Of a DNA stretch of 64,000 nt, positions 10-3,447 are shown piece by piece (position 1 is the first letter of the stretch; every line of letters begins with the position of its first letter). Under the pieces are notes generated by a model. The model was not told the DNA's origin. It did not search any database and worked only from the letters and a program-made list of their open reading frames with translations. Source of the DNA: Cenarchaeum sp. (GTDB lineage: Archaea > Thermoproteota > Nitrososphaeria > Nitrososphaerales > Nitrosopumilaceae); contig OY843768.1 of the NCBI GenBank assembly GCA_963693095.2, positions 512,001 through 576,000 on the forward strand, read 5' to 3'. The translations under genes were made by a program, and so were the position numbers.

Positions 10-158
10 CCGACAAATGGCGTATTTTCTCTACTTTGCATGATTTGCACTTTTGCCGACAAATGGCGTATTTTCTCTACTTTGCATGATTTGCACTTTT
101 GCCGACAAATGGCGTATTTTCTCTACTTTGCATGATTTGTTCTTTTTGCCGAAAAATG
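10..158. repeat. 46-bp direct tandem repeat, about 3.2 copies
   Basis: Unit CCGACAAATGGCGTATTTTCTCTACTTTGCATGATTTGCACTTTTG at 10-55 and 56-101 (identical), 102-148 (3' end diverged), then partial CCGAAAAATG at 149-158. Unit length is not a multiple of 3 and there are no unique spacers. Confidence 0.95.
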
Positions 159-471: not shown

Positions 472-999
472 TCACTGCACGTCGCCTAGTGTCCCGCTTT
501 CGATGGTCTTTATCTGGTTGCGTGTCAGGTTGACATATCTGCGTGGGTTTTGAGATCCGGGCAGTATGGCGCGTGCAATAAGTATCTCCGTTGATGCTAC
601 TGCCCTCACCGCATTTTCGTCAATATGTCTACGATATAGCGAAATAAACAGTCTTATATTTCCGGACAAGTGTGTCATTGCCGTGTACACACGCCTGTCA
701 TCTGGATATTCTTCTAGTGCGTCATCGATGATCTCTAGTTCCTCTTTACACTGATTTGCCAAGTTATATGCGTCTCTTATGTTAGATTTTTCTTCAGACT
801 TTCGTGCATCGGCTGACTTGATTGATCTGTACATCTCATACACCAAAAATAAAAGTGGTGGTATTCCTGCCCAAAATACCACTTGGTTTAAAATGTTCGT
901 CACCACCATAAATACAACAACTGCGGCAAACATGACAAACCACTCTACTTTGTACGTTTTGATGTGGTGTAGTGGATTTTTGAACTCGTGCTCACTCAT
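472..999 (-). CDS. Hypothetical membrane protein, 175 aa, two N-terminal hydrophobic segments; candidate toxin/effector
   Basis: Hydrophobic stretches WFVMFAAVVVFMVVTNIL and VVFWAGIPPLLFLVY are followed by a charged, helical-looking domain. Its ATG overlaps the upstream TGA (ATGA at 999-996) and is preceded by a Shine-Dalgarno-like AGGGAGGAG. GC is visibly lower than in the giant gene. Confidence 0.8.
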   Translation of the reverse strand: MSEHEFKNPLHHIKTYKVEWFVMFAAVVVFMVVTNILNQVVFWAGIPPLLFLVYEMYRSIKSADARKSEEKSNIRDAYNLANQCKEELEIIDDALEEYPDDRRVYTAMTHLSGNIRLFISLYRRHIDENAVRAVASTEILIARAILPGSQNPRRYVNLTRNQIKTIESGTLGDVQ

Positions 1000-1538
1000 G
1001 GCTCCTCCCTTTTGTTACCTATGGCATATTCAGACACCTGATCAAACGCGTCTTTGAACATGCGTTTATCATATTTCATATGGTTGTATTTCATGCGATC
1101 CGCAAATCCGTCACGTGTGGTGCCTTCATCAAGTTCGTGCAAGGCAAATGTGGCAATCTCGAGCCATTCTAAACTCTTTCCACTGACTAGTGTGATAAAC
1201 GCGTCTGACTCGTGAGGCTTGCCCTCGAACGGTGACACGCCTCCCTGTGCAAGATCACGATCCTCTAGATCTATGGCCATGTCTGCCGAAAATGCCCCAT
1301 TCTCAACAAAGTTAAACCTGTACTTTAGATCTGCTCCAAACCGCTGTGCAATGTACACGTATTTTTGCAGCATATGGCCACCAACAAACGTGTCGACATC
1401 ACTAGTGTCGTTTATCACGCGCTTTTCTACTAGATATGTGATAAACTTCATCAGCGTCCCGATGGCCTTGACTCGAGTGCGCTGTGCTGCATCATGTGCC
1501 ATGGCATGCCGGCTTGTGGTGTGCGCCATGGGACACAC
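996..1538 (-). CDS. YwgA-like / SocA-Panacea (DUF4065)-like protein; candidate antitoxin
   Basis: MLQKYVYIAQRFGADLKYRFNFVENGAFSADMAIDL resembles the LQKLVY-x-Y-x-F-x-GPYS-xx-L-xx-DL signature of YwgA/Panacea-like proteins, followed by LEWLEIATF (compare LELLAT). The GTG start overlaps the ATPase TAG by 1 nt at 1538; the real start could be an ATG slightly downstream (1529 or 1502). Confidence 0.65.
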   Translation of the reverse strand: MCPMAHTTSRHAMAHDAAQRTRVKAIGTLMKFITYLVEKRVINDTSDVDTFVGGHMLQKYVYIAQRFGADLKYRFNFVENGAFSADMAIDLEDRDLAQGGVSPFEGKPHESDAFITLVSGKSLEWLEIATFALHELDEGTTRDGFADRMKYNHMKYDKRMFKDAFDQVSEYAIGNKREEP

Positions 1539-3037
1539 TATGCCTCCAGTGCGCGCTGGAGTTTCAGTCCCTGATTATACATGTCCATGCTGAGGTTCAC
1601 AAACTCCTCTTGCGATATGCCGTCCTTGGGAGAATGTGGTATCTCTTTAACTGTGTATTTCCCCCTGGCGCGCTTTTGAAACACATAGGGCGCAACCTCG
1701 CTGTCGTGGATATAGTCGTCCTTTCCATACCCGAGTTTCCTGCGCTGGGCTGCCGTCAGATTGCTGGTCTTGACAAACGTGCCAAGCTGTTCGAGGAAAA
1801 ACGCGCTATGCGTTGCCAAAAGCACGCGCACGCCGTGCCGTATGAGCCAGACTATGTGTCTTGCCAGCACAAGCTGATTCGCCGGATGCAGGTGCGCCTC
1901 GGGCTCCTCGATGATTAAAATCTCGCCCCTGTGCGCACCGTATCGCAAAAACAGGGAGAGTGGCGCGTTCTCTGCGATTCCGGCCGATGCCCTGTCCAGT
2001 GGGATATCTGAGCCCAAAAACGTGTGCCTTATTTCGGGTATTCCCAAAGGCGACTCGACTAGTGTGATTTTCCCATCAAACATGCCCTTCTCTAGGCTGT
2101 TGCCAATTTTTGAGAGGGATCCGGGTTTTGTGGCTGACAGTCTGATCACCATGCCGGCAAAATCGGCCATTATGCCATTGAGGTTTGTGCTCGGGGATGA
2201 CGGTGTGCCGGGACTGTGCTGATTTTGTATGGCGCTAGCCACAAATGGCCTGTATGCCTGCATGATGCCAGACCGCACTGCGGGGAAATAATGTGACCGT
2301 GACGGAAAATCTGCCGTGGGATTGTGCAAAATGCTCAAAATTAGCGTCAATAGCGCAATCAGGCCATAGTTATTGCCCATGTCGAGCCTTGTAATGATGC
2401 TCTCGACTGTCCTTTGGATCGTCTTGTCCAATAGGCGCTGCTTGGCGCTGTCCTTGATGCTGTGTGGTTTTGCAGGGTGGACTACAATGCCTTTGGGGGT
2501 CTTTTTTAGCGTGTACGGGATTGGCAAAGAGTTGTACTTGCCGACAATTTTTCTATCAAGGGTCAGTTTGACCCTCATGGGACTGGAGACTTTGATCTGG
2601 GAGCGCCTGGCGGTGATCCTGACGAGGCTCTTGAGTTTAGAGTTGAAATTGCGTTCAAGCTGATGCTGAAAACTGTCCTCAAAAATTGGCCGCAGCACAA
2701 CCCTGGCCACCCTGTTCACAAACTCCCCTGGGATTGCCACGGCCTCTTTTCCACGCGCCTTGTCTAGAATGGCCCCCATCTCCGACATGAGCCCCTGGAA
2801 CTCTGGCTGCCTGATGTGGCCCTCCACTAGTTCTGGAGTTGACCAACCCTGGCGATTGCGCGCATATGCGGTGAACAGGGAATGGATCAATGCTGCGGCA
2901 TATGTCTTGCCTGAACTGTTGGGACCCACAAGGATGGTGAGGGGCCTCATCTCAAAGCTTGCCCTCGATATGGGGCCAAAGTCGGCCATCTCGACCACCA
3001 TGGAAAAGTCTTGCCTGTCATCATGCGGCCTCGCCAT
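1538..3037 (-). CDS. ABC-type ATPase of the AAA_15/AAA_21 class, about 499 aa
   Basis: N-terminal DFGPI strand, Walker A GPNSSGKT, signature-like ASAGIAE, Walker B/D-loop ILIIEEPEAHLHPANQ and H-loop LLATHS. Start placed at ATG 3037 rather than 3187 because a TATA box lies 23-30 nt upstream and the DFGPI/Walker A region normally begins near the N-terminus. Confidence 0.9.
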   Translation of the reverse strand: MARPHDDRQDFSMVVEMADFGPISRASFEMRPLTILVGPNSSGKTYAAALIHSLFTAYARNRQGWSTPELVEGHIRQPEFQGLMSEMGAILDKARGKEAVAIPGEFVNRVARVVLRPIFEDSFQHQLERNFNSKLKSLVRITARRSQIKVSSPMRVKLTLDRKIVGKYNSLPIPYTLKKTPKGIVVHPAKPHSIKDSAKQRLLDKTIQRTVESIITRLDMGNNYGLIALLTLILSILHNPTADFPSRSHYFPAVRSGIMQAYRPFVASAIQNQHSPGTPSSPSTNLNGIMADFAGMVIRLSATKPGSLSKIGNSLEKGMFDGKITLVESPLGIPEIRHTFLGSDIPLDRASAGIAENAPLSLFLRYGAHRGEILIIEEPEAHLHPANQLVLARHIVWLIRHGVRVLLATHSAFFLEQLGTFVKTSNLTAAQRRKLGYGKDDYIHDSEVAPYVFQKRARGKYTVKEIPHSPKDGISQEEFVNLSMDMYNQGLKLQRALEA

Positions 3038-3059
3038 GGACTGGCACGTCGGGCGTGGC

Positions 3060-3076
3060 AAATATATCGTTTCGTC
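3060..3076 (-). promoter_or_regulatory. Archaeal-type BRE/TATA promoter of the ATPase operon
   Basis: The minus strand reads GACGAAACG-ATATATTT, with the AT-rich box 23-30 nt upstream of ATG 3037 in an otherwise GC-rich context. Confidence 0.6.
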
Positions 3077-3447
3077 GCCCATGCGCCTGTTCTGGCCATG
3101 CCCATGCTCACACAAGCCCAAAAAATGGTGTATGGTGCGTGAACTGTTATGCGAGCCGGGCGCGCAGTCGTTGCCTGTGGCCGCCATGTGGCCAGTGATG
3201 GGCTGCCCTGCATTCCAATGTCCGCCCCGTGATGGCCGTCACCGCATGGCGTAATCGCGTATTGCGCGCGGCTGCGTGACTGCCTTGTGTGATCAGCAGG
3301 CTGGGCGGGGATTTCTGCAGGGCGCAGATCTGGAATCTCGAGCAAGGCCATGGGATTGGTCAGTCTGGCCACTTGGCCCCTATTGGAAAGCCTGGCGAAA
3401 TGCGCTATGGGGCATTGTGTCTTTCCCCAGTGTGGTGCCCACGATGG

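Follow-up and report, generated by a model that had tools for sequence, protein, structure and literature searches.

What connects three overlapping genes at one locus, and do they belong to a single system? This question is raised by the first few thousand nucleotides of a 64,000-nucleotide stretch of Cenarchaeum sp. DNA (hereafter the window), which covers positions 512001-576000 of contig OY843768.1 in a 2.0-Mb genome of the phylum Nitrososphaerota that is 99.5% complete. On its minus strand, a gene for an OLD/ABC-type ATPase is followed by genes for a 180-amino-acid protein (the middle protein) and a 175-amino-acid protein with two transmembrane (TM) segments (the TM protein). A reading made from the letters of the window (the sequence-only reading) had proposed these genes as one candidate defence or toxin-antitoxin (TA) module. 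Our results argue against a conserved module. The explanation that we favour, to which we give about an even chance, is that a PanAT-like two-gene cassette lies behind an orphan PD-T4-4/WonA-like ATPase and is probably co-transcribed with it.

Three overlapping genes on one strand

The list of open reading frames (ORFs) of the window contains three co-oriented minus-strand ORFs at 1538..3187, 996..1538 and 472..999. The first encodes the PD-T4-4_A/WonA-like ATPase, which comprises 499 amino acids when read from the ATG at 3037 (1538..3037) and 549 when the frame is followed to its open end at 3187; database gene calls also chose ATG 3037. The second (996..1538) encodes the middle protein, a Panacea/DarG-C-terminal-domain-like putative antitoxin. 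Its start is uncertain between GTG 1538, ATG 1529 (the database gene call, 177 amino acids) and ATG 1502, all of which lie upstream of the conserved region. The third (472..999) encodes the TM protein, a putative membrane-acting partner (toxin) with two N-terminal TM helices and a predicted C-terminal four-helix bundle. All three ORFs are real genes rather than chance ORFs, because the ATPase has 755 homologues, the middle protein has 111 relatives and a model with a mean predicted local distance difference test score (pLDDT) of 94.3, and the TM protein has 10 paralogs and a model with a pLDDT of 82.8.

The features that had first drawn attention to the locus were present in the sequence. At the junction of the ATPase and middle genes, the stop codon TAG (1540-1538) has one base in common with GTG (1538-1536), giving TAGTG, and at the next junction the ATG of the TM gene (999-997) lies over the TGA of the middle gene (998-996), giving ATGA. 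A Shine-Dalgarno-like GGAGG could be read on the minus strand 4 nt before GTG 1538 (1543..1547) and again 4 nt before ATG 999 (1004..1008). Upstream of the ATPase gene, the TATA-like box ATATATTT occupies 3060..3067 on the same strand, read from 3067 to 3060, with its centre about 26 nt before ATG 3037; it is a candidate promoter for a leaderless transcript. A distance of about 26 nt from the centre of the TATA box to the start codon is expected for leaderless archaeal mRNA, and the spacing agrees with the choice of ATG 3037. The GC content was 0.432 in the TM gene, 0.483 in the middle gene and 0.534 in the ATPase gene, below that of the neighbouring giant gene (0.664); the value for the genome is 0.604.

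A divergent, Panacea/DarG-C-terminal-like middle protein

A full HMMER search of 1.84 billion representative sequences found 111 relatives of the middle protein at E ≤ 1e-3, 30 of them at E ≤ 1e-10; searches with a word index for homologues of either small protein returned only their own clusters. The AlphaFold2 (AF2) model of the middle protein, built with 74 aligned relatives, had a pLDDT of 94.3 and a predicted template modelling score of 0.88. VIA-align, which is independent of Foldseek, gave as its top match chain 7yk3_D, the C-terminal domain of DarG in the DarTG complex (Z 10.7, root-mean-square deviation 3.6 over 142 residues, model residues 22-171, 15% identity), and the next row had a Z of 6.2. 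The top PDB rows of Foldseek were the same structure (7yk3_D and 7yk3_B, probability 1.00, E 0.04), and a profile of the middle family searched against PDB sequences matched 7yk3_B best (E 0.016). Weak DarG matches also came from PADLOC (0.0031) and NCBIfam (0.021). The Pfam scan assigned the middle protein to no family, and no YwgA family, the other name that had been proposed for it, turned up in any general family scan of the proteins; a literature search on that name brought up nothing relevant.

We compared the middle family with the Pfam family PF13274 (SocA_Panacea, DUF4065) using hhalign. The comparison set held 22 of the 24 PF13274 matches obtained from 18 of 301 genomes of the phylum, one short fragment and one stop-riddled sequence being left out. 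The results showed a match to these archaeal proteins at 94% probability (E 1.4e-7) over 50 columns, which contain the KLQK..Y...GP.S core; the motif K-L-Q-K-x-x-Y...G-P/A-x-S aligned with that of PF13274 members. Two loci in other genomes were matched by both the PF13274 and the middle-family profiles. In the ESM Atlas the middle protein fell among unnamed archaeal clusters only, and the nearest named family was PF13274 (13% of members, 0.84), which serves as a lead only. A passage of a 2026 paper (PMC13621843) describes DUF4065 proteins as homologous to the C-terminal inhibitor domain of DarG. Because of the fold match to 7yk3, the profile-profile match to PF13274 and this homology, we place the middle protein in the Panacea/DarG-C-terminal antitoxin superfamily, of which it is a divergent, unannotated archaeal branch. 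At the level of the fold, the Panacea assignment of the sequence-only reading was borne out.

The middle and TM genes recur together as a pair

The TM protein has hydrophobic segments at about residues 15 and 36, and its AF2 model (pLDDT 82.8, 12-row alignment) shows a helical hairpin followed by a four-helix bundle, in keeping with the two N-terminal TM helices proposed earlier. It matched no Pfam or PADLOC family. A fold search with its C-terminal domain returned a flat list of generic four-helix bundles, including the sensor domains of McpS, NarQ and HPt. We dropped a functional reading of these matches, since the top Z of 13.9 lies within the range expected for helical bundles.

A jackhmmer search found 11 members of the TM family in the genome, that is, 10 paralogs of the TM protein. 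Nine of the 11 genes lie directly downstream of a middle-family gene, mostly with 0-4-nt overlaps or short gaps, indicating that the middle and TM genes are a recurring two-gene cassette. Counted from the other side, a same-strand ORF with at least two hydrophobic segments comes directly after 14 of the 50 middle-family genes. Elsewhere in the genome, pairs of middle and TM genes stand among housekeeping genes (dnaK/grpE, malate dehydrogenase), without an ATPase, and the pair is also present in the one further genome of the genus that was sampled.

The middle and TM proteins were also submitted to complex prediction in three runs with 3 controls, using alignments made in this analysis. The prediction gave weak support for a complex, a pass of the weak class, with a median of 0.36 (runs 0.36, 0.45 and 0.00) and 0.00 for the best of the 3 controls; contact agreement in the runs was at least 0% and the pLDDT of the partner at least 65. 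Of 157 solved complexes, 116 reached that mark, as did 2 of 215 mismatched pairs, and at 0.60 or under there were only 18 of the 157 solved complexes plus both of the mismatched pairs that passed.

Outside this genome the middle family changes partners. Among 29 middle-family loci from other genomes, a TM-family neighbour was found at the same-genus locus only, and 23 had a same-strand downstream ORF. Pfam scans of 14 of these downstream ORFs found PIN domains in five (E ≤ 0.01; two above the cut-off), an HD domain in one and a thymidylate synthase in one. When 28 downstream ORFs were scanned, transposases turned up nearby, DDE_3 twice and rve once. Passages of Kurata et al. (2022, PMC8832971) describe Panacea antitoxins as pairing with diverse toxins, including membrane-disrupting ones. 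An antitoxin-like gene placed before changing partners, classic TA toxins among them, is the Panacea pattern.

One further pairing was considered and rejected. Pfam describes AAA_21 as an "AbiEii toxin", and the middle protein could on that basis have been the antitoxin of the ATPase; this was ruled out by the 49 of 50 paralogs without an ATPase and by the reversed gene order.

The ATPase lacks the usual partner of its family

The first gene had been called an AAA_15/AAA_21 ABC-type ATPase of the defence kind, and the family scans agreed. Pfam matched AAA_15 (5.9e-17) and AAA_21 (2.7e-11), and PADLOC matched PD-T4-4_A best (1.8e-33), followed by PDC-M47A (1.8e-22), NsnB, AriA (1.1e-19) and GajA (1.6e-11). 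The NCBIfam scan gave nothing near a cut-off (PtuA 0.054). At E ≤ 1e-3, 755 of 7,998 scored candidates counted as homologues. Many relatives of the ATPase come from sponge symbionts, according to the database records. In an alignment of 35 homologues, including this ATPase, the Walker A G/GK, Walker B EEP and H-loop TH columns were invariant. The C-terminus is intact, with homologues aligning up to residue 497-499.

We then gathered 111 ATPase loci, comprising the 4 paralogs of this genome, 79 loci sampled at one genome per species and another 28 from within the same taxonomic family. A same-strand ORF starting within 150 nt of the stop was present behind 92 of 95 full-length ATPase ORFs, and at 69 of these 92 loci the downstream ORF belonged to one small-protein family of about 150-175 amino acids. 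The family was seeded by the 164-amino-acid protein behind the closest ATPase paralog of the genome (46% identity). This protein shows a D...E-x-K pattern by eye, and the usual small partner is probably restriction endonuclease (REase)-like. Neither PADLOC nor Pfam named it (PD-T4-4_B models matched 0 of 4 tested), save for one weak PDC-M47B match (0.0087). According to parts of PMC12137116 and 10.1101/2025.07.10.664194, PD-T4-4 and WonAB consist of an OLD-ABC ATPase and a small PD-(D/E)xK nuclease.

The small-partner profile found nothing within 8 kb of the locus (best E 0.49), and no nuclease remnant was found here. In the whole genome the same profile found one member, beside another ATPase paralog, and three of the four ATPase paralogs stand without a small partner. 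These results indicate that the ATPase is an orphan, a defence-type protein without the usual nuclease-like partner of its family, whose absence had been noticed in the sequence-only reading.

Solo ATPase paralogs lie at contig positions 1167437-1169011 and 481748-483364. One of the two is followed by riboflavin synthase and the other is convergent with an archease-like gene. The gene beside the paralog on the archease side resembles, by eye, the C-terminal part of a DNA methylase.

The trio is confined to near-identical strains

Both the middle-family and TM-family profiles were applied to the neighbours of the ATPases, and a member of either family was found beside the ATPase at 0 of the 110 other ATPase loci. 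Conversely, an ATPase was present at 0 of the 29 middle-family loci of other genomes, and 49 of the 50 middle-family paralogs in this genome stand without one. These counts do not support one conserved module, and the trio is probably lineage-specific. It is kept on a 61.5-kb contig of a near-identical strain and occurs, at or near identity, in contigs of 4 runs from 3 studies, none of which shows an independent arrangement. Across genomes the three genes were found together in these near-identical strains only and never outside them. The proposal that the trio is not a named system stood: no PADLOC model describes it, and no paper joining DUF4065/SocA with an AAA_15, AAA_21 or ABC ATPase was among the matches listed.

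Between the two near-identical strains there are 4 changes in the 499 residues of the ATPase, 1 in the 177 of the middle protein and 13 in 147 of the TM protein. The TM protein thus changes about 10 times faster than its neighbours, a pattern suggesting that selection on the putative toxin is either relaxed or diversifying. Another strain has 22 changes among the 499 ATPase residues (95.6% identical), and the clusters formed at ≥90% around the middle and TM proteins contain no member from it. A 3.2-kb lower-depth contig of one run joins 170-257 to 1033-1163 at about 80-93% likeness, with 38 other letters between them and without the ATPase; it is probably a paralogous locus sharing a flank.

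Proposed mechanism and alternative explanations

Under the explanation that we favour, the locus would combine two modules that differ in origin. One would be a bicistronic TA-like cassette of the PanAT kind, made up of the middle and TM genes, in which the middle protein, by analogy with PanA and DarG, may bind the protein encoded just downstream of it and hold it inactive. The model predicts that the TM protein is anchored in the membrane by its helical hairpin, with the four-helix bundle in the cytoplasm, and once freed from its inhibitor it might damage membrane integrity or energisation. The cassette occupies the nuclease slot of the ATPase, with a start codon overlapping the ATPase stop, and is probably co-transcribed from the ATPase promoter. 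The ATPase would not be a general partner of the cassette, and the trio would represent a lineage-specific juxtaposition in a small defence/TA islet rather than a conserved three-gene system. Functional coupling of the ATPase and the cassette is possible.

Several results weigh against this explanation. The case for membership of the superfamily consists of one structural neighbour and a profile-profile match of 50 columns: Foldseek gave no PDB match for the middle protein at E ≤ 0.001, and PF13274 matched 0 of 74 relatives at E ≤ 0.01 and nothing in the genome at E ≤ 0.1. The complex prediction was weak, one of its three runs scoring 0.00. The TM copy at this locus is without the conserved C-terminal DDPxL..RR motif of its family, which is intact in a paralog at contig positions 1331852-1332406, and in the near-identical strain the protein is cut to 147 amino acids (28 residues shorter), so that the TM gene may be decaying rather than active. 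Other points speak against mere juxtaposition, namely the overlap of the cassette start with the ATPase stop and the GGAGG at the same 4-nt spacing before both cassette genes. No AT-rich box was seen ahead of the middle gene itself, whereas 32 of the 50 paralogs have one 20-34 nt before a candidate start, a count that is a loose heuristic with no null model. Finally, the trio is intact in at least one other assembly and in the contigs of 3 studies, all of them near-identical and so not independent.

The points concerning the junction would also suit a single defence system in which the ATPase acts as sensor, as in PD-T4-4, WonAB and PARIS, and the nuclease has been replaced by the 175-amino-acid membrane effector, held by the Panacea-like protein until the ATPase is triggered. 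Besides the TAGTG overlap, the identical GGAGG spacing and the missing AT-rich box, this account draws on the position of the cassette, which takes the very place that the small partner gene has at 69 of 92 loci and is as tightly coupled, on the lack of a nuclease remnant, and on an ATPase with an intact C-terminus, fully conserved motifs and 4 of 499 changes between strains. We nevertheless consider it unlikely. The combination recurs at none of the 110 other ATPase loci and none of the 29 middle-family loci elsewhere, and 49 of 50 paralogs of the middle gene do without an ATPase. Two other ATPase paralogs in the genome are simply solo, so the loss of a nuclease needs no replacement, and nothing close to the middle or TM protein is recorded for the strain with the 95.6% identical ATPase. 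Moreover, the TM gene is the fastest-changing of the three and is shortened in the sister strain, which is odd for the effector of a maintained system. The corresponding evolutionary event, in which an OLD-type ABC ATPase sensor gave up its nuclease and took on a ready-made cassette with a Panacea-gated membrane effector, is likewise unlikely. If true, it would be a new archaeal abortive-infection architecture, with defence sensors capturing TA cassettes as plug-in effectors.

The alternatives that give up the toxin, or any present function, seem less probable still. The DarG-C/Panacea-like protein might be a soluble adaptor or regulator and the two-TM protein a membrane sensor or anchor, the family having expanded for signalling or sponge-host interaction and not for growth arrest. 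The generic four-helix bundles matched by the TM protein do include the sensor domains of McpS, NarQ and HPt, Pfam and PADLOC recognised no toxin family, and in two genomes of the genus the family has expanded far beyond usual TA copy numbers. We hold this to be quite unlikely: in other genera the family precedes PIN-like proteins, which are classic TA toxins, its sole clear structural relative is a toxin-binding antitoxin domain, and the bicistronic overlap, low GC and nearby transposases fit selfish or defence cassettes. There is a small chance, the lowest that we assign, that the locus is a decaying remnant in which the ATPase was orphaned when its nuclease was lost and the TM gene encodes a toxin that is degenerating, with no current function beyond, at most, that of the antitoxin-like protein. 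Partnerless ATPases (3 of 4 paralogs in the genome), the missing C-terminal family motif of the TM copy, and its 13 of 147 changes and 28-residue shortening in the sister strain would be in line with decay; the three open frames, the intact ATPase motifs and the near constancy of the ATPase (4 of 499) and the middle protein (1 of 177) between strains speak against it. A PanAT-like cassette behind an orphan ATPase stays the preferred reading. With the nuclease slot of a defence-type ATPase filled in this way, the locus shows either modules caught while being shuffled within a defence islet or a rare effector swap.

Comparison with known systems

The cassette is like PanAT in having a small antitoxin-like gene just upstream of, and overlapping, a variable partner (ATGA at 996-999 here). 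Some partners carry TM helices, the partner types are unrelated (two-TM here; PIN-like and HD in other genera), and the core motif of the middle protein aligns with PF13274 members. It differs in that the middle protein is unmatched by the PF13274 model and belongs to an unannotated archaeal family, and in that its partner, of about 175-215 amino acids, joins a two-TM hairpin to a four-helix bundle and comes from no known family. The middle family also has 50 copies in one 2.0-Mb genome, compared with a maximum of 25 reported in a passage of PMC8832971. With DarTG it shares the C-terminal domain of DarG (7yk3), the toxin-binding inhibitor domain that is the best and only clear structural neighbour of the middle protein; DarG is also the best sequence-profile match in the PDB, PADLOC and NCBIfam. 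Unlike DarG, the middle protein has no macrodomain, its neighbour has no DarT match in Pfam, PADLOC or NCBIfam, and the identity is 15%.

For the ATPase, the closest systems are PD-T4-4 (Vassallo et al. 2022), WonAB (PMC12137116) and the PADLOC candidate PDC-M47: PD-T4-4_A and PDC-M47A are its best matches, its NTPase motifs are intact, and its homologues form two-gene operons with the partner of about 150-175 amino acids at 69 of 92 loci. In contrast to PD-T4-4 and WonAB, no small PD-(D/E)xK nuclease gene lies beside the ATPase, and a Panacea-like gene follows it instead. A further difference from PD-T4-4 is that the small partner of the homologues was unmatched by the PD-T4-4_B models (0 of 4), its REase nature being suggested by the D...E-x-K pattern seen by eye. 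PARIS, Septu and Gabija share the same broad AAA_15/21 ABC ATPase class (AriA 1.1e-19, GajA 1.6e-11). The scores of their ATPases are weaker than that of PD-T4-4_A (PtuA 0.054), and Pfam and PADLOC found no TOPRIM or HNH domain in any of the three proteins, unlike AriB of PARIS, the GajA C-terminus of Gabija and PtuB of Septu.

Expansion of the middle family

A profile search of the 12,998 ORFs of at least 50 amino acids in the genome (E ≤ 1e-3) found 50 middle-family ORFs, with E-values from 1.6e-53 to 3e-5. Arrays lie at about 13.8-45 kb and 779-787 kb of the contig, with about 19 and about 6 tandem copies, respectively. Between the copies stand a DDE_3 transposase and small unannotated ORFs, some of which have two TM segments, and the 779-787 kb array also has two TM-family genes on the other strand. 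A middle-family match was obtained in 60 of 401 genomes of the phylum. The maximum of 8 scored matches was reached only by this genome and the sole same-genus genome sampled, which had 61 and 37 first-look candidates, respectively.

According to a passage of Kurata et al. (2022, PMC8832971), the highest Panacea count among 20,209 genomes is 25, and part of another study (PMC7848895) describes sponge-associated Thaumarchaeota as "overall not enriched" in TA modules by COG/Pfam counts. The middle family is an archaeal branch invisible to Pfam-based surveys, with 50 copies in a 2.0-Mb symbiont, many of them with two-TM partners. If these are true TA or defence cassettes, the load of immune and addiction genes in such symbionts would be badly underestimated. 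Panacea-type TA systems and OLD-type ATPases are known; the archaeal subfamily, its two-TM partner, the 50-copy expansion and the juxtaposition with the ATPase are new.

Genomic surroundings

Rfam and tRNA scans of the window gave no matches. Just before the start of the window, at contig positions 508960-511931 on the minus strand, a gene for a 619-amino-acid HATPase_c_3 protein (7.5e-15), with a DUF6577/AbiEi-like C-terminus (PADLOC AbiEi 5.6e-4), is followed next downstream by a gene for a 371-amino-acid AbiEii nucleotidyltransferase (Pfam 3.1e-12). The two genes resemble an AbiE-type pair in which a GHKL ATPase has been joined to the antitoxin. Because the GHKL/AbiEi-like and AbiEii genes adjoin it on the same strand, the trio belongs to a small TA/defence islet, which is flanked on both sides by giant genes for surface proteins.

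One of these is the giant ORF at 3968-52453 on the plus strand, which encodes 16,161 amino acids with repetitive Ig-like surface-protein features and starts about 930 nt upstream of ATG 3037, in the opposite direction. The second giant ORF, of 5,241 amino acids, ends at contig position 508943. Between the 3' end of the TM gene and the start of the GHKL/AbiEi-like gene lies a 46-bp tandem repeat (window positions 10-158; 3.2 units, 96% matches), which is unique in the genome (3 hits, none elsewhere) and may be an operator or promoter array of the GHKL/AbiEi operon.

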